This document shows positions 1,948 through 6,188 of a stretch of DNA of 10,032 nucleotides, piece after piece. A model generated the notes under the pieces. That model did no database searches. It saw nothing but the letters and a program-made list of their open reading frames with translations, and was not told where the DNA came from. The stretch comes from Escherichia coli (GTDB lineage: Bacteria; Pseudomonadota; Gammaproteobacteria; Enterobacterales; Enterobacteriaceae). Position 1 is the stretch's first letter, and every line of letters starts with the position of its first letter. Where the stretch lies: the NCBI RefSeq assembly GCF_036507355.1, contig NZ_AP027880.1; one strand, given 5' to 3'. A program made the translations under genes and the position numbers.

Positions 1948-2023
1948 CCCTTCCCCTACGCTCAAAACGCGCTGTAGGCCCTTCTACGGGCCTTGGCGAC
2001 CCCTTCCCTTCCTGATTGCCGAA

Positions 2024-2078
2024 GCCGGAGGGGGAGCCGCCGCCGCAGGCGGTGGGGGAACCCCGCAGGGGTGCCCCA
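2024..2078. repeat. 55-bp GC-rich direct repeat, copy 1 (identical to 6089..6143); short hairpin-forming subunits
   Basis: gccggagggggagccgccgccgcaggcggtgggggaaccccgcaggggtgcccca is identical at both loci. Homology extends about 5-10 bp upstream (gatt…) with a 5-bp indel. Confidence 0.9.
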
Positions 2079-2098
2079 TGTCCTTGTCGCAGCAGCGT

Positions 2099-2170
2099 TT
2101 TCCACAGGTTGTGGCGGCCAATTACAGGTTTAGATTTATAGGATTCTTTTTTTAAAGGCTTAACCTATCG
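2099..2170. promoter_or_regulatory. oriV AT-rich region with a DnaA-box-like sequence
   Basis: TTTTCCACA at 2099..2107 (8/9 match to TTATCCACA), followed by an AT-rich stretch (ttacaggtttagatttataggattctttttttaaagg) immediately before the iterons. Confidence 0.55.
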
Positions 2171-2175
2171 GTTTA

Positions 2176-2284
2176 GGGGGGGTCCGATTTAACGGGAAAA
2201 AGGGGGTCCGATTTAACGTGGATAAGTACCCTTGGGGGGGTCCGATTTATCGAGGTGGGGGGGTCCGATTTAACGTGGATAAGT
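2176..2284. repeat. oriV iterons: four direct repeats of GGGGG(GG)TCCGATTTAACG, two extended by CGTGGATAA (DnaA-box-like); a fifth degenerate copy at 2397..2414
   Basis: TCCGATTTAACG/TCCGATTTATCG cores start at 2183, 2207, 2241 and 2264 (spacing 24/34/23 bp). cgtggataa at 2217..2225 and 2274..2282. Located directly downstream of the initiator gene, as in pVS1-type replicons. Confidence 0.85.
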
Positions 2285-2446
2285 GGCGCTATCGACAGGG
2301 TTGTGCACCGTTTTGGTCCCGCTGGGGTTTTCGGACACTTCCAGAGACATAAAACCCCGGAGATTCAATGCGTTGCACACGAATCGCCGGGGTCTAGGGG
2401 GGGCCGATCTAACGACACGTTTGTCGGACACTTCAAGGGGTTAGCG

Positions 2447-3442
2447 TTACTCGGTCGGACCGCCCTTGTAAGAGATCGGCGGCGGGGAACCGAGCAGCAG
2501 GACGCCGCCCGTGACCGGCTTCACCTTGGCCTGCGGATAGACGGCCAGAACCTTCTTGAGGGCCGGCACAAACTTCTTCTTGAAGTCCTTGTCAGCATCC
2601 TTGCCGGTGTACTCCTGCGCGAACTGCTCGCGCAGAGACTTCCAGTGCAAAGTGACGCCGCGTCCCTCGATGCGATGCAGCCGGTGGGCCAGCCAAGCGT
2701 AGACATCGAGCGCCAGCGCCGAACCTTTCAGGGCCATCAGGGCGCGGTTGTCGAGCGGTACGGCGCTTTGCATCAGTGACGTGAAATAGCCCTCGGACAA
2801 CACCATCGTGCCCGGCCATAGCGCCCGCTGCTTGGTGTCGCGGTTCGCCATCCATGCGTCGAACTGCTCGACCGGCTGTCCATTGAAGGTGCGGCCCTTG
2901 AAGCCAAGTTGCAGACGGCAGGCGGCCAGCGCGTGCATCTGCTTGCGCAGGGTCGCATAGCGCGCCCCTTGGTCGTCCAAGCCCATCAGGCTAAGGAACT
3001 CGGCCGCGCTATCACCGATCTTGATTTCGCGCTCCTTGTTGCGCACGGCAAAGGTGGACACCCACGCCAGCGCCAGCCGGGGCATGACGCCATAGGGGAT
3101 CGGTTGCAGCACCGGCCCGTTGCCTTCGTCCAGATAACCGGCCTGCACGTTCACCCACGCGGCCCCGGACTGGCGCATGAACTCGCGCCCCTCGACCTTG
3201 GCGCGGGGCAAGCCGACCTGACAAAGCACGGCGTGAGTAAACGCCATGTCCTCGCCGCTCGGCGGGTTCGTGGCGATTTCGGCGGCCGCGTCGATCAGGT
3301 TTATCTTTTGGCGACTGATGAATGACAGGCTCTTATTGCTCTGCCCTTTAGATGCCGTAGCGTCGGCCGCCCGCTTAACCTCGCGCGGCACAATGTTGCC
3401 AAGCAGCGAACCGATGGGCTGGGGGCCGTTAGATTTGCTCAT
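2447..3442 (-). CDS. repA: Plasmid replication initiator protein (iteron-binding RepA; TrfA/pVS1-RepA-like family assignment tentative)
   Basis: 331-aa ORF ending 30 bp from the iteron cluster, co-directional with and immediately downstream of the parA-parG operon. GGAGAT RBS about 9 nt upstream of the ATG at 3442. Family call is from synteny and recalled motifs (…SALALDVYAWLAHRL…), not a search. Confidence 0.7.
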   Translation of the reverse strand: MSKSNGPQPIGSLLGNIVPREVKRAADATASKGQSNKSLSFISRQKINLIDAAAEIATNPPSGEDMAFTHAVLCQVGLPRAKVEGREFMRQSGAAWVNVQAGYLDEGNGPVLQPIPYGVMPRLALAWVSTFAVRNKEREIKIGDSAAEFLSLMGLDDQGARYATLRKQMHALAACRLQLGFKGRTFNGQPVEQFDAWMANRDTKQRALWPGTMVLSEGYFTSLMQSAVPLDNRALMALKGSALALDVYAWLAHRLHRIEGRGVTLHWKSLREQFAQEYTGKDADKDFKKKFVPALKKVLAVYPQAKVKPVTGGVLLLGSPPPISYKGGPTE

Positions 3443-3469
3443 AAGGCGATCTCCACCGGCATGGCCGGG

Positions 3470-3727
3470 CTAGTTATTGTGGCGCTGCTCGTATTCATCG
3501 AAGGCCAGCCGCAACAGCTCGTTTAGCTTGAGGTCGTGGGCCGCTGCGAACATGCGGAAACGTCGACGCAGCTCGGCCGACACGCGGAAATTGAGCGGCA
3601 CATTGTTCGCCGAGGCCTCGGCCTCGGCCTTCACCTTGGGGGTGCAGGTCGGCATGTCGGCAACCGGCGCGGCGCTGCCCTTCGTGGCAACAAGGCCGGT
3701 CAAATCAGCGGGCTTCTTGGTAGCCAT
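3470..3727 (-). CDS. parG: ParG-like ribbon-helix-helix partition protein (centromere-binding partner of ParA)
   Basis: 85 aa with a C-terminal RHH fold signature (LNFRVSAELRRRFRMFAAAHDLKLNELLRLAFDEY) and a flexible Ala/Lys-rich N-terminus. Its ATG (3725..3727) lies 1 nt from the parA stop. Confidence 0.75.
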   Translation of the reverse strand: MATKKPADLTGLVATKGSAAPVADMPTCTPKVKAEAEASANNVPLNFRVSAELRRRFRMFAAAHDLKLNELLRLAFDEYEQRHNN

Positions 3728-3728
3728 A

Positions 3729-4379
3729 TTAAACGGTTTCCTTCTTTTTGGTTATCTTCTTAGCGTTCATGCGTTCTTGCACGAAAGCTAAAAGCTGGGA
3801 GATTTCCTCGGCGCTGCGGCTCTTGGGGTCGCTCTCGCCTACGGTGCGGCCGTCCACCATCGAGGCGGCATAGTCCACGCGGTCATGCACGATGGCTGGG
3901 GCTACAGCCCCATGCGCGGACAAGGCGGCCACGGCCTGAACGGTAAGCCGCGCGGTCGGCTTGGCCTGCGTCACGGCGAAGGCGAAAGGCCGGCCGGTTT
4001 CCTGCGCAATGTCCACGGTGCTGCCTACGGCCCGCAGGTCGTGCGGGCTGGGCCGGGTCGGGATCAACACAAGGTCGGCCAGCTTCACCACGTCGCGGAT
4101 AGCCTCGGTGATGGCCGGCGGGGTGTCGATCACGGCCAGCTTGAAACCAGCCTCGGCCAGCGCCCGCAGCTTGGCGGGCAGCTCGGCCAGCGAGGCGGCG
4201 GCCAGTGCCGGGGTGTCGTCCTCGCGGGAGTTCCACCACGCCGAAAGTGACCCTTGCGGGTCAGTGTCGAGCAGGACCGCCGGGCCGGCTCCTGCCTGTT
4301 CGGCGGCAACCGCAAGGTGCGCCGCTAGGGTGGTTTTCCCGGCTCCCCCCTTCTGGCTTGCTAGAACAAGGATTTTCAC
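3729..4379 (-). CDS. parA: ParA-family partition ATPase (small type Ib Walker-type, 216 aa)
   Basis: Deviant Walker A MKILVLASQKGGAGKTT at the N-terminus. GTG start at 4379 with AGAGGG RBS 5 nt upstream. Followed by the RHH partner gene. Confidence 0.9.
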   Translation of the reverse strand: MKILVLASQKGGAGKTTLAAHLAVAAEQAGAGPAVLLDTDPQGSLSAWWNSREDDTPALAAASLAELPAKLRALAEAGFKLAVIDTPPAITEAIRDVVKLADLVLIPTRPSPHDLRAVGSTVDIAQETGRPFAFAVTQAKPTARLTVQAVAALSAHGAVAPAIVHDRVDYAASMVDGRTVGESDPKSRSAEEISQLLAFVQERMNAKKITKKKETV

Positions 4380-4454
4380 ATGCGCCCTCTTGATTCGTGT
4401 TGGGACGCTTTAATGATAGCCAAAAAGCACGCATCTTGCAGAGTCTATTGAACA

Positions 4455-4474
4455 AAAGCACGCTTGCGTGCTTT
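4455..4474. promoter_or_regulatory. 20-bp palindrome aaagcacgc-tt-gcgtgcttt upstream of parA, with an extra half-site at 4424..4432; candidate par operator or centromere-like site
   Basis: Perfect 9-bp arms; the half-site aaagcacgc is repeated 31 bp away. Lies in the parA leader/promoter region. Confidence 0.45.
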
Positions 4475-4475
4475 C

Positions 4476-4526
4476 TGGATTGTGCAATCCAAAAGCCGGG
4501 GCGGCCGGCGCGTGTAATCGCAAACG
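4476..4526. repeat. Inverted repeat A (51 bp), perfect inverted copy of 5576..5626; contains palindromic core ggattgTGcaatcc and motif CGTGTAATCG
   Basis: The reverse complement of 5576..5626 is identical to 4476..4526 (checked base by base). Confidence 0.9.
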
Positions 4527-4557
4527 GGTAGGGAAGGGGAGGCCGGTTTCTGATGCC

Positions 4558-5190
4558 CTATGCCGCCGGAATCTGCCGGCGGGAGGCCCATATTCGTTTG
4601 ACCTGGCTCTCGCTGCATCCGGCCAGCCGGGCGGTTTCCGCGATGCTCGATCCGCCCTCACGCAAGGCCACGACGCGAGCGTGTAGCGCCCGGTTTGGTT
4701 TCCTACCTCTGTAGCGGCCGGCGGCCTTGGCAAGCTCTATGCCCTGCCGCTGCCGCTCGCGGCGGTCCTCGTAGTCGTCACGCGCCATCTGCAGGGCGAG
4801 GCGCAAGAGCATGTCTTGCACCGATTGCAGGACGATGCGGGCCACGCCCTCGGCCGTCTCGGTCAACTCTGACAGGTCCACCACGCCGGGCACGGCGAGC
4901 CGCGCGCCCTTGTCGCGGATCGCCTGCACAAGCTGCTCGGCCTCGGGCAAGGGCAGGCGGCTAATGCGGTCCATCTTCTCGGCAATGACAACCTCGCCGG
5001 CCTGCAAGTCCGCGATCATGCGCAACAGCTCGGGCCGGTCGGCGCGCGCGCCGGATGCCTTCTCACGATAGACGGCGGCCACGTAGTAGCCGGCCGCCTT
5101 CGCGCTCTCGATGATGGATTCTTGCCGGCGCACGTCCTGCTCGTCGGTGCTGACGCGGATATAGACCCGTGCGACCTTGGACGCTGCCAT
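4558..5190 (-). CDS. Small serine recombinase (resolvase/invertase family), about 211 aa
   Basis: N-terminal catalytic motif MAASKVARVYIRVSTDEQ and C-terminal HTH (SIAETARLAGCSESQVKRIW). Start placed at ATG 5188..5190 with AGGAGG 7 nt upstream; the track ORF (to 5310) is over-extended into the upstream gene. Confidence 0.85.
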   Translation of the reverse strand: MAASKVARVYIRVSTDEQDVRRQESIIESAKAAGYYVAAVYREKASGARADRPELLRMIADLQAGEVVIAEKMDRISRLPLPEAEQLVQAIRDKGARLAVPGVVDLSELTETAEGVARIVLQSVQDMLLRLALQMARDDYEDRRERQRQGIELAKAAGRYRGRKPNRALHARVVALREGGSSIAETARLAGCSESQVKRIWASRRQIPAA

Positions 5191-5201
5191 TTTGGTGCCT
5201 C

Positions 5202-5456
5202 CTACCGGATGCTCGGCATTCCGGTGCCCCGGAACATGGCTTTCTGCTGGGCCGCCATCGCGTTCTTGCAATTGGGCGTGTCGGCCAGCTCGCCGGGGTT
5301 GTTCCGGCATTCCGCGATCTGCGCCTTACGCTCGTCGGGATGGTCGAGGAAATAGGCCACGTCATGCACGGGGCGGGCGTCGGCCGCTTCGTCGCTGCTG
5401 GCAGGATTGCAGGCCGTCAGCACGGCCACGGCGGCGAGCGTCATCACAAGGCGCAT
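5202..5456 (-). CDS. Small lipoprotein, EexN/TrbK-like (entry-exclusion family resemblance; tentative), 84 aa
   Basis: Lipoprotein signal peptide with lipobox (MRLVMTLAAVAVLTAC). Mature part has the two-Cys pattern …HPDERKAQIAECRNNPGELADTPNCKNA…. AAGGAG RBS 7 nt upstream of the ATG at 5456; ends 11 bp before the recombinase start (operon). Confidence 0.6.
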   Translation of the reverse strand: MRLVMTLAAVAVLTACNPASSDEAADARPVHDVAYFLDHPDERKAQIAECRNNPGELADTPNCKNAMAAQQKAMFRGTGMPSIR

Positions 5457-5487
5457 AGTTTCTCCTTTGGCGCAGTTGGGTATTCCT

Positions 5488-5530
5488 AAATGCGCCCAGC
5501 ATAGCAGCTAGGGCGCATTTGGTGAATCCG
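5488..5530 (-). promoter_or_regulatory. Candidate promoter with overlapping palindromic operator for the lipoprotein-recombinase operon
   Basis: On the minus strand, TTCACC-17 nt-TATGCT lies about 30 nt upstream of the lipoprotein ATG. It overlaps the perfect 10-bp inverted repeat aaatgcgccc…gggcgcattt (5488..5520). Confidence 0.4.
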
Positions 5531-5575
5531 CGATGCTATTGCGCTAGGCTCGCAAAGCCGATCCATCTGCGCCAG

Positions 5576-5626
5576 CGTTTGCGATTACACGCGCCGGCCG
5601 CCCCGGCTTTTGGATTGCACAATCCA
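5576..5626. repeat. Inverted repeat B (51 bp); here the core sits in a full 30-bp palindrome cggcttttGGATTGcaCAATCCaaaagccg (5603..5632), a candidate serine-recombinase crossover site
   Basis: Perfect inverted identity with 4476..4526. Two 14-bp arms around a central CA dinucleotide (TG in copy A), the geometry of resolvase/invertase site I. Confidence 0.6.
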
Positions 5627-5634
5627 AAAGCCGT

Positions 5635-5678
5635 GTTCGCGCTTCGCCGGGCCATCCTCGACGCGGCGAAGCGCGAAC
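5635..5678. other. Perfect 15-bp inverted repeat with 14-nt spacer (gttcgcgcttcgccg…cggcgaagcgcgaac); candidate accessory recombinase-binding subsite or structural hairpin next to the crossover site
   Basis: Seen directly in sequence; lies 3 bp beyond the 30-bp palindrome. Confidence 0.4.
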
Positions 5679-5707
5679 GCGAGGCCAGCGGCCAATAGGC
5701 GAAAGGT

Positions 5708-5734
5708 CGGCCGGCTCTGCCGGCCGGCTTTTTT
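5708..5734 (+). terminator. Terminator-like GC hairpin followed by T6 in the intergenic region
   Basis: ggccgg-ctctg-ccggcc then ggc tttttt. No plus-strand gene lies immediately upstream, so the role is unclear. Confidence 0.35.
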
Positions 5735-6088
5735 CATGGAATCGGATCCCGGTCGCCGGCCGGGGATTCCTTCAACGTGTAATCGGTCACGCTAGAAAGC
5801 CATAGGACGCGCTAGGAGCGCCGCACCGGCCGGGCCGCTACCTTCCCCCTCCCCTGCCCTAAAGAACGCCGCCACGGGCTGCCAGCGCAGCCGTAGGCGT
5901 ATCAGATTACACGTGCCCCCCGGCCTCTTTTGGTGCTTTCCACCTATCAGCCCGCAACCAGGTCAAAGGAGATCCACGACACTGGCCGCCAGCTCTCTTC
6001 CCTGCCGAGCCTGCCGGCCGGTAGGCCGGCCCATCGCCGGCGCAGCCGGCGCTACAAAACGCTTCGGCCGCTTGCGGCCGTCCGATTA

Positions 6089-6143
6089 GCCGGAGGGGGA
6101 GCCGCCGCCGCAGGCGGTGGGGGAACCCCGCAGGGGTGCCCCA
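6089..6143. repeat. 55-bp GC-rich direct repeat, copy 2 (identical to 2024..2078), immediately upstream of the Rep_3 initiator RBS
   Basis: Exact 55/55 identity with copy 1. Confidence 0.9.
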
Positions 6144-6188
6144 AGGGGGGCGACGTCGCGGAGGGCCGCAGGCCCGGAGGTTGTCAGG

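Follow-up and report, generated by a model that had tools for sequence, protein, structure and literature searches.

A conserved origin-edge element of iteron-type plasmids, present twice in a plasmid of Escherichia coli that appears to be a fossil replicon fusion

The DNA analyzed here, contig NZ_AP027880.1 of Escherichia coli (10,032 bp, the whole of which is called the window below), is a plasmid that carries two identical copies of a 56-nt GC-rich element, one beside each of two unrelated replication modules, that of repA and that of a gene of the Rep_3 family. The element is a conserved, strand-polar mark, about 50 nt in length, of the outer edge of iteron-type plasmid origins. Judged from its sequence and from those of its relatives, the plasmid appears to be a fossil fusion in which a small mobilizable MOBQ/Rep_3 plasmid took up a whole RepA-type replicon unit, and we read it as a replicon replacement caught midway and not as a two-replicon plasmid. 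Taken as a whole, this explanation, which joins an origin-edge element, a fossil fusion, an orphan Rep_3 gene, and a function of the single-strand initiation (ssi) type, is given a probability of about 0.7. A preliminary description of the same DNA had proposed a possible cointegrate of two replicons and, as an alternative, a shared origin-associated site.

RESULTS

Two copies of one element on a complete circle

The identical direct repeat that the preliminary description had placed at 2024-2078 and 6089-6143 was recovered as an exact match at 2023-2078 and 6088-6143; it is 56 nt long and extends 1 base further left than had been described. The window holds exactly two copies, both on the + strand, and no third, and the start-to-start distance of the copies is 4,065 bp, in agreement with the arcs of 4,065 and 5,967 bp that had been drawn. 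Since a 22-nt core of the repeat was expected 0.00 times by chance (200 shuffles), the pair is not a chance occurrence. Copy 1 consists of AGCCGGAGGGGGAG, a first hairpin (hairpin 1; CCGCCGCC-GCA-GGCGGTGG), and GGG-AA-CCCC-GCA-GGGG-TG-CCC. The window is a complete, circularly permuted 10,032-bp circle, because the open reading frame (ORF) of an autotransporter (ATG at 9010) continues in frame over the end of the window into position 1. It shares 99.6% identity with p2017.17.01CC_2, a circular E. coli plasmid of 10,103 bp, and a second related assembly, AP027811.1, which has many homopolymer errors, shows the same architecture, which argues that the two-copy layout is not a misassembly. The two initiators are indeed unrelated, the 331-aa protein matching Pfam RepA_C and the 265-aa protein matching Rep3_N plus Rep3_C, and the neighboring genes (ParA, a serine recombinase, an EexN lipoprotein, and a MobQ-type relaxase) were confirmed as originally read.

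The element marks the outer edge of iteron-type origins

A sensitive BLAST search found the element in 66 PLSDB records, and an exact scan with a 21-nt core found about 40 non-Clostridia loci in species-representative genomes, mostly on short, plasmid-like contigs of Proteobacteria. In all, more than 100 plasmids and contigs were found to carry it. Carriers include pBBR1 itself and IncP-6 plasmids with GES-5 or KPC (PMC5641379), along with plasmids from Xanthomonas, Burkholderia, Agrobacterium, and Pseudomonas and many environmental plasmids. Across 5,426 complete E. coli genomes, the element occupied 36 places on plasmids and 0 on chromosomes, so the repeat is not one that is common and dispersed in the host genome, a possibility that the preliminary description had named. 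Indeed, proteobacterial plasmids and genomes carry one copy per replicon at a fixed place, and the core was absent from 2.9 million viral contigs.

The place of the element relative to the origin was equally regular. Written on its G-rich strand, the element had an initiator homologue within 2 kb on its right side in 26 of the 28 distinct copies that were flanked by 1.5 kb or more at each end and on its left side in none (0/28). A DnaA box (one mismatch at most) was present within 150 bp on the right of 29 of 44 distinct copies and on the left of 0 of 44, and the AT-richest 40-mer started 4 to 120 bp to the right of the element in most copies. The order in every family examined was element, DnaA box and/or AT-rich unwinding tract, iterons, and initiator gene. 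Five Pfam-distinct groups of initiator were found beside the element (RepA_C, RPA, Rep3_N/C, TrfA, and pBBR1 Rep, the last matching only a helix-turn-helix domain), as was one further protein of 352 aa without a Pfam match. The rep genes of the Rep_3 and pBBR1 types point away from the element, and those of the RepA and RPA types point toward it; since the direction of the gene varies and the side of the origin is constant, the orientation of the element follows the origin and not the gene, which speaks against a role linked to mRNA. Together, the distribution, the polarity, and the variety of initiators strongly support the shared origin-associated site that had been offered as the alternative, and the element is likely to be a selected component of the origin edge.

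Covariation supports a hairpin within the element

At their left end, the aligned copies have a variable GC hairpin, with a T-run after it in some plasmids, and a short spacer that often contains CGAT. There follow GC(C/G)GGAGGGGGAGCC, which hardly varies, hairpin 1, whose stem has 4 to 8 bp, and, in the right part, a nearly invariant TGGGGGAACCCCGNAGGGGTGCCC that can fold as GGG-AA-CCCC-GNA-GGGG-TG-CCC (hairpin 2). Hairpin 1 was found in at least 22 distinct versions on at least 10 stems (for example, CCGCCGC/GCGGTGG, CCGCGCC/GGCGTGG, CCGGC/GCCGG, CCACCGC/GCGGTGG, and CCGACGC/GCGTTGG), and every version is a perfect hairpin. In an ungapped alignment of 12 equal-length variants, 100% of the cells pair, three pairs change on both sides, and the conserved G.T becomes A-T in three sequences. 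The covariation score, which was taken on related sequences and on an equal-length subset chosen by us and which therefore supports a structure and is not a probability, was reached by 0 of 500 shuffles, and slid controls collapsed. In both hairpins, the loop is nearly always G-N-A with a closing C:G pair (GAA, GCA, GTA, and GGA in hairpin 1; GCA, GGA, GAA, and GTA in hairpin 2), and pMRAD02 has hairpin 2 swapped for a different one, GGGGC-AAA-GCCCC. The conserved G.T wobble lets the G-rich strand fold slightly better than its complement. An Rfam scan of the whole window gave no match at either copy at E-values up to 1.

In some RPA and RepA plasmids, the element is followed by more units in the same style (GGAGGG, a GC hairpin with a GNA loop, GGAGGG), as at L097 2550-2640, in L086, at L008 4050-4110, and at 6144-6180 of the window, where a 28-nt linker to the right of copy 2 resembles one such GGAGGG/GC-hairpin unit. 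The element may thus belong to a short array in which it is the member that is best conserved.

Free relatives of both halves, and evidence for a fusion

Free relatives of the Rep_3 half were found in a 4,158-bp Paracoccus plasmid (L001), a 4.8-kb Hydrogenophaga contig whose ends overlap (L023), and a 5.2-kb contig from a metagenome-assembled genome (MAG; L074). All three have the order mobA, oriT, traD, one element, DnaA box, AT-rich tract, three iterons, promoter/operator, and rep, and outside the repeat pair, on either side, all three run collinear with the window (identities of 95 to 98% for traD and 94 to 98.9% for rep). For the other half, a metagenome scan with the left flank of copy 2 yielded two contigs, L094 and L095, in which window 5645-6087 (99.4%) is joined via a single element to window 2079-5641 (93.7%), with oriV, repA, parGA, and the recombinase region beyond the element. 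In L094 and in Agrobacterium pAt2, the unit stands in a larger backbone with a type IV coupling protein (T4CP) gene, element, oriV, repA, par, recombinase, and toxin-antitoxin (TA) genes. Thus, a RepA-type unit with a single element is present in L094, L095, and pAt2.

On this comparison, the 4,065-bp arc appears to be a circular permutation of the RepA-type replicon unit, situated at the position of the Rep_3 plasmids' own element and origin, which is the geometry expected of recombination between two circles at the element. The window plasmid is most simply read as a fossil fusion, in which the inserted RepA unit would comprise the element, oriV, repA, parGA, the res/recombinase region, and a left-flank segment, and this architecture and history are very likely to be as described. 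Fusion of this sort is an ordinary kind of event, here unusually well documented. The cointegrate idea therefore stood in part: two replicon lineages are joined at the repeat and both have free relatives, but the Rep_3 half has no origin. Initiators of two different families are present, as are the direct repeat and separate parental forms; a cognate origin in cis was found for RepA and was absent for Rep_3. The free 4.1-kb and 6.0-kb circles whose search had been recommended were not present in PLSDB, and the RepA unit occurred in the metagenome scan only inside larger contigs or backbones. For the window plasmid, L005, and L006, both known hosts are E. coli from human feces in Viet Nam, and for each module the nearest relatives were those of Beta- and Alphaproteobacteria and of environmental metagenomes (Hydrogenophaga, Paracoccus, Agrobacterium, Brucella, and Comamonas).

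The Rep_3 origin is missing

The closest free relative of the rep gene of the window is that of L074 (also L023), with 98.9% nucleotide identity. Alignment with L023 and L074 begins at 6172, which sets the breakpoint at 6171|6172, and the 260 bp that separate the element from the breakpoint in L074 are replaced by 28 bp in the window. In L074, these lost 260 bp hold TTATCCACA, an AT-rich tract, three CCTGACATTTTTCGGG iterons, and the promoter/operator. Rep_3 iterons of the L001 type, of the L074 type, or of a degenerate pattern were found nowhere in the window, no repeats flank the Rep_3 gene, and no sigma-70-like promoter was found upstream of it in 5400-6300. The Rep_3 gene of the window is an orphan, as its promoter, its DnaA box, its AT-rich tract, and the iterons cognate to it are all missing. 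At the 6171|6172 junction there is a microhomology, (G)CCCGGAGG, which is the ribosome-binding region of Rep_3 in L074 and also part of the GC-hairpin array after the element in some other plasmids; its occurrence in both contexts points to a microhomology deletion.

Sister plasmid L005 (NZ_AP027824.1) has an in-frame 81-bp deletion in Rep_3, equivalent to about 6249-6329 of the window. The deletion lies between short direct repeats (GACG..TGGCCGA) and removes residues 22 to 48, including the start of the WH1 domain, and yet this sister plasmid is a complete circle maintained in an E. coli isolate. RefSeq labels the shortened gene an ordinary "replication initiation protein." The preliminary description had expected recombination between the repeats to give two circles, each with its own initiator; as viable replicons, these were not borne out, given the missing Rep_3 origin and the partly deleted Rep_3 of the sister plasmid, and the converse case, in which one rep gene is an inactive remnant, essentially holds for origin function. 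Without a Rep_3 origin, the circles released by recombination of the two copies would be a replicating RepA circle of 4,065 bp and one of 5,967 bp that has no origin, the latter with rep, mobA, oriT, the autotransporter, and the TA genes.

Possible route to two copies, and the element as a module boundary

The simplest route would be that two circles, each with the element, underwent a single crossover inside it or at it and that the redundant Rep_3 origin was deleted later at the 8-9-bp microhomology CCCGGAGG. Throughout their 56 nt, both copies in the window have the type of the RepA lineage (AGCCGG..., a hairpin 1 of 8 bp like that of L094, ...CCCCA), and the Rep_3-lineage element is of another type (TGCGGG..., a 7-bp stem, ...CCCCG). 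From the purely RepA-type state of both copies it follows that the Rep_3 parent already had a RepA-type element or that the copies were homogenized later.

Over 114 bp, the sequence on the left of copy 1 corresponds to the left flank in another small plasmid contig, L079. Homology between plasmids repeatedly breaks at the element. That of pAt2 and L082 to the window starts exactly there. Compared with L094, the window is 99% identical on the left of the element, 73 to 93% identical across oriV-repA, and 97 to 100% identical beyond, and IncP-6 plasmids have this mob module linked by the element to a RepA replicon (PMC5641379). Because such breakpoints recur, the element behaves as a recurrent module boundary. 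As it is near-identical in unrelated plasmids, it could serve as a portable patch of homology for the exchange of origin and initiator modules. The oriV-repA segment, the only one in which the window diverges from L094 (the left flank, par, and recombinase regions being 97 to 100% identical), looks like a replication-specificity cassette that has been swapped, with the element as its limit on one side; the divergence spans 2079-3330 of the window versus 2397-3650 of L094, with iterons that read TTTAACG in the window versus TTTCACG in L094 and that form four clustered copies versus two.

Other features of the plasmid

Copy 1 of the element (2023-2078, + strand) heads the working RepA-type oriV, and the homology of pAt2, L082, and L094 begins or runs on at this copy, into oriV-repA. 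A DnaA-box-like TTTTCCACA (2099-2107, + strand; 8/9 match to TTATCCACA) lies 20 bp to the right of the copy, at a position where the relatives carry TTATCCACA. An AT-rich tract at 2121-2175, the presumed DNA unwinding element of the RepA oriV, is followed by the RepA iterons, GGGGGTCCGATTTAACG (2176-2413, + strand), four of which are clustered at 2176-2275, with the fifth at 2396-2413. The gene repA (2447-3442, - strand; Pfam RepA_C) encodes the 331-aa iteron-type initiator, which has 89% amino acid identity to that of pAt2. A partition pair follows (3470-4379, - strand), with an 85-aa ribbon-helix-helix, ParG-like protein at 3470-3727 and the ParA ATPase at 3729-4379, and is also supported by the RefSeq annotation of the sister plasmid.

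The presumed res region (4473-5629) contains the serine recombinase (4558-5190, - strand) and EexN lipoprotein (5202-5456, - strand) genes, enclosed by 54-nt inverted repeats (4473-4526 and 5576-5629; 98% complementary). Each repeat holds a palindrome, TTTTGGATTGCACAATCCAAAA, of the form TT(C/T)TGGATTG(T/C)(G/A)CAATCCAAAA. L094 has the same repeat pair, and its homology to the window stops exactly at the outer edge of the right repeat (5641), which suggests that a res-mediated deletion took out the TA/tra/T4CP DNA that lies between the equivalents of 5641 and 5645 in L094. No inversion polymorphism of the region was seen among the window, L005, and L006.

The segment directly to the left of the single element in RepA-lineage relatives corresponds to 5645-6087 (+ strand) of the window, with 99.4% identity to 1898-2340 of L094, where it is preceded by a T4CP gene and continues through one element into oriV. 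It contains a hairpin like that of an intrinsic terminator (5705-5735) and an upstream GC hairpin, GGCCGCTTGCGGCC (6066-6079). Copy 2 (6088-6143, + strand), identical to copy 1, thus has a left flank of the RepA lineage and a right flank that leads to the Rep_3 gene, and it stands at the position where the Rep_3 origin of the free relatives begins. The 28-nt GC-rich linker, AGGGGGGCGACGTCGCGGAGGGCCGCAG (6144-6171, + strand), stands in for the 260-bp Rep_3 origin and promoter. The Rep_3-family gene (6189-6986, + strand; Rep3_N plus Rep3_C) is an intact ORF 45 bp downstream of copy 2.

The Rep_3-lineage backbone continues with mobA (7079-8599, - strand), assigned to the MobA/MobL (MOBQ) relaxases by profile match and by homology to the relatives, and with an RSF1010-type oriT (8672-8711, + strand), which shares the strand of the element and is made up of the inverted repeat TTTCTCGGCTTGCCGAGAAA and, after it, TAAGCGCGCC. 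The IncQ1 plasmid L103 has oriT and mobA in the reverse-complement arrangement. A traD-like ORF remnant (1708-1947, + strand) is the last recognizable backbone gene of this lineage before copy 1; it matches L001, L023, and L074 at 95 to 98% identity in three pieces, with internal deletions relative to L001 and L074, and a truncated duplicate of the traD-like 5' end adjoins oriT at 8803-8902. The two traD duplicates bracket the autotransporter and TA genes (about 8900 through the end of the window to about 1700), and the block therefore looks like a separate insertion into the small plasmid backbone. The autotransporter passenger (9087-10032 and 1-215), whose gene crosses the ends of the window, consists of at least 6.5 tandem 156-nt (52-aa) repeats with 90 to 98% identity, and its relatives, of 10,103 and 10,486 bp, probably have another number of repeats than the window (10,032 bp). 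An 18-nt motif at 1964-1981 (approximately CTCAAAACGCGCTGTAGG) occurs in either orientation about 260 to 500 bp to the left of the element in other plasmids that are otherwise different (L002, L007, L010, L013, L025, L078, and L102).

DISCUSSION

Proposed function of the element

The 3' end of the G-rich strand points into the AT-rich tract, and outward movement of a helicase from the origin would therefore leave this strand single. In the mechanism that we favor, the AT-rich tract opens, the helicase moves outward, and the G-rich strand folds into two C-GNA-G mini-hairpins that resist SSB, the protein that binds single-stranded DNA, and give the strand that leaves the origin an ssi signal (for priming or for loading a primosome), as do ssiA and ssiB in IncQ plasmids. 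Mini-hairpins of the C-GNA-G type are exceptionally stable in DNA, bind SSB poorly, and occur in the phage G4 complementary-strand origin, in ssiA of RSF1010, and in the single-strand promoters of N4 (PMC13037366). Among its natural variants, hairpin 1 shares an exact 15-mer, CCCGAAGGGTGGGGG, with ssiA and an exact 17-mer, GCCGCGCAGCGGTGGGG, with ssiB of the IncQ1 origin; on the same strand, these lengths were reached by 0 of 200 shuffles. In MOBQ plasmids, the location of oriT on the same strand as the element makes the G-rich strand the predicted transferred strand, a prediction that relies on the known nick strand of R1162/RSF1010, and there the element might also prime complementary-strand synthesis after conjugation. 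By analogy, an ssi signal read by host machinery seems the best-supported mechanism, and that the element acts specifically as a priming or primosome signal is put forward tentatively. We regard as rather doubtful the broader proposal of a universal, host-read origin-edge module, in which primase/primosome or SSB exclusion would read strand-specific mini-hairpins, at least five initiator families (pBBR1, IncP-6, TrfA-type, and Rep_3 among them) would depend on the module for the first strand, and the module would double as the crossover point for swapping origin/initiator cassettes. If it were true, the dispersed short form of the element found in a Clostridia MAG (described below) would reflect recognition by a factor conserved across phyla.

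Alternative explanations

The plasmid might instead be a live cointegrate, with RepA/oriV and Rep_3 both functional and with recombination between the repeats freeing two autonomous plasmids. Two intact initiator ORFs of different families, direct repeats at both junctions, and the existence of both parental lineages as separate molecules are what such a plasmid would have, but the Rep_3 origin is deleted, its DnaA box, AT-rich tract, iterons, and promoter being found nowhere else in the window, no promoter-like site precedes Rep_3, the sister plasmid has its in-frame deletion at the start of WH1, and PLSDB holds neither a 4.1-kb nor a 6.0-kb circle; this explanation is largely refuted, and we give it almost no credence. 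The same very low standing is assigned to a site-specific recombination site for multimer resolution or integration, with the duplication as the product of a recombinase. The element is present in plasmids of 2.7 to 4.2 kb without a recombinase gene (pBBR1 and L001), is asymmetric, without a dyad-symmetric core and spacer, and has its right junction 28 bp further on, at the microhomology, and the arc has res-like palindromes of its own elsewhere, at 4473-4526 and 5576-5629; in favor of such a site are the homology breakpoints at the element and the serine recombinase encoded in the arc.

An element acting at the level of RNA, as a terminator or insulator against incoming transcription or as a structured leader or small RNA, is also very improbable. 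The wobble in hairpin 1 is G.U compatible, a T-run follows the variable upstream hairpin in some copies (pBBR1 and IncP-6), and left-hand genes often read toward the element. However, no U-tract follows the element, a terminator scan found nothing at either copy, there is no Rfam match, the left-hand neighbors lie on either strand, and orientation is tied to the origin, the gene being co-oriented in Rep_3 and pBBR1 plasmids and opposed in RepA and RPA plasmids. Indeed, a T-run directly after the element was absent in the aligned copies, and only the separate upstream hairpin has one. Somewhat better placed, and still unlikely, is a topological or boundary element that acts as duplex or cruciform, either a GC clamp that confines unwinding or a gyrase site that keeps the origin negatively supercoiled. 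Comparable duplex-level elements are the pSC101 par locus and the repetitive extragenic palindromic (REP) elements. The fixed position outside the DnaA box and AT-rich tract, like that of the GC-rich region in RK2 and pMOL98, would suit this explanation, as would the REP-like dispersal of the short form in the Clostridia MAG, but a clamp has no need for a 23-nt invariant core, G-N-A loops, or compensatory changes in the stem, the conserved G.T wobble favors folding of one strand, and similarity to the RK2 sequence does not exceed chance.

Several findings weigh against the explanation that we prefer, that of an ssi-type origin-edge element in a fossil fusion. A crossover between a Rep_3-type and a RepA-type element should leave chimeric copies, and both copies are purely of the RepA type; with no chimeras and with the right junction 28 bp outside the element, such a simple crossover was rejected as the whole story. 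The source of the 28-nt linker is only loosely traced, and the Rep_3 ORF of the window is intact, its 7 synonymous and 4 nonsynonymous differences from L074 being too few to tell. Folding energies of the element were no better than those of shuffles on both strands (z-scores of -0.7 to -1.4) and differed little between strands (1 to 3 kcal/mol); folding energy was therefore dropped as structural evidence, and covariation was used in its place. The "hairpin-prone" character given to the repeat in the preliminary description is thus correct by covariation but unexceptional in folding energy for DNA so rich in GC. In relation to the IncQ ssi signals, the element lacks their 5' CCTTTC tail, in place of which all copies have a purine-rich GGAGGGGGAG(CC), and it is single, on one strand per origin, whereas the IncQ ssi sites form an opposed pair. 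No recognizable primase, of the RepB' type or other, is encoded by the plasmids with the element; no primase family was matched by the proteins of the window, MobA matching relaxase models only, and on inspection of the aligned copies the CTG start of DnaG was not conserved in or beside the element on the G-rich strand. The copies in L072, L088, L098, and L099 have no initiator nearby, and a shorter relative of the element is a dispersed repeat in one Clostridia MAG, which an origin-specific model leaves unexplained.

Among the copies without an initiator, that of L072, a Methylobacterium indicum contig, is followed by tetR/tetA and a beta-lactamase gene, probably an insertion; that of L088, a contig of 655 kb, by TetR-type regulators and an acyl-coenzyme A synthetase; that of L098, an Acidovorax plasmid, by type IV secretion system genes; and that of L099 (pXap41) lies within a 2.9-kb stretch without a listed gene. 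The Clostridia short form comprises 35 nt of the element (GCCGGAGGGG..GTGGGGAACCCCGCAGGGGTGCCCC) and lacks hairpin 1 (AAGCCGGAGGGG-YGT-GGGGAACCCCGCAGGGGTGCCCCACA). In the MAG "uncultured Clostridia bacterium Lapin-025__bin54" (L031-L069), 48 copies were counted on many contigs in the 339 kb fetched. A GGGCGAC-GAA-GTCGCCC hairpin precedes 27 of the 48, with other GC-hairpin repeats around, and 23 of the 48 lie outside ORFs of at least 150 aa, although spurious ORFs abound at such a GC content. In an Actinomycetes MAG (L016, 3230-3275), the short form lies between a stop codon and a start codon.

Implications

If the element is functional, the annotated "oriV" of many plasmids, including the pBBR1 vector family and the IncP-6 carbapenemase plasmids, lacks a conserved component that could affect copy number, host range, and establishment after conjugation. 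It would also supply a mutable sequence for the role of the GC-rich segment at iteron origins and for the place of first-strand priming. The fusion would exemplify a one-step change of replicon in a mobilizable plasmid at a shared 50-bp element, with a change of incompatibility group and host range, and both parents and a decaying intermediate are at hand. Replicon typing would assign such a plasmid to Rep_3, and yet it would replicate as RepA. The literature yielded no description of the element, whether by its exact core sequence or by topic, an absence that does not prove it to be undescribed.

Comparison with known systems

As a fusion, the plasmid resembles pAER57 with its added IncP-9 replicon (PMC6614342), in that initiator genes of two different families were brought onto one circle by plasmid recombination. 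Unlike multireplicon plasmids of that type, it has its junctions at a shared origin-edge element, and one of its replicons is already without an origin. As a repeat, the element is like REP elements and bacterial interspersed mosaic elements in that its short form is dispersed in one Clostridia MAG and unlike them in that Proteobacteria have one copy per replicon at a fixed place, with 0 in E. coli chromosomes.

Near replication origins, ssi sites for the host primase or primosome are places where leading-strand synthesis is primed once the helicase has exposed the hairpins. G-sites of the G4 type (e.g., in R1) and PriA sites of the phiX type (in ColE1) are one-strand hairpin clusters that flank a theta origin, and the G4-type (DnaG) ssi has a conserved 5'-CTG-3' start site next to its hairpins. 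The three-hairpin layout of G4 was not seen in the element, and CTG occurs on its other strand only in variants with a GCA loop. Similarity is closest to ssiA and ssiB of the IncQ plasmids (RSF1010/R1162), which likewise are GC-rich hairpins with a C-GNA-G triloop beside the AT-rich tract of an iteron origin. In ssiA, as in the element, CCCC-GCA-GGG comes next, and at least 148 IncQ1-type plasmids carry the 40-mer of ssiA with 100% identity, next to iterons and GC-rich and AT-rich tracts. The CCTTTC tail and the stem base of the ssi sites are determinants of recognition by the RepB' primase (PMC13037366). The stems of the element are shorter than those of ssiA and ssiB, and it serves at least five initiator families, whereas the ssi sites serve RepC only.

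In position, the element is like the GC-rich region in the oriV of RK2 and pMOL98 (PromA), which lies on the far side of the AT-rich tract from the iterons and which in RK2 also contains GC hairpins with GCA loops; moreover, the element of pMRAD02 lies upstream of ssb, where the PromA origins lie. Homology to the RK2 segment was rejected, since alignment scores were equal in both orientations, and RK2 is treated as a positional analogue only. Regions of the RK2 type have been described by composition only, whereas the element is a defined, conserved sequence with a covarying structure that is shared across families. It is thus related to known ssi signals and to GC-rich origin edges, and its breadth across initiator families sets it apart from both.

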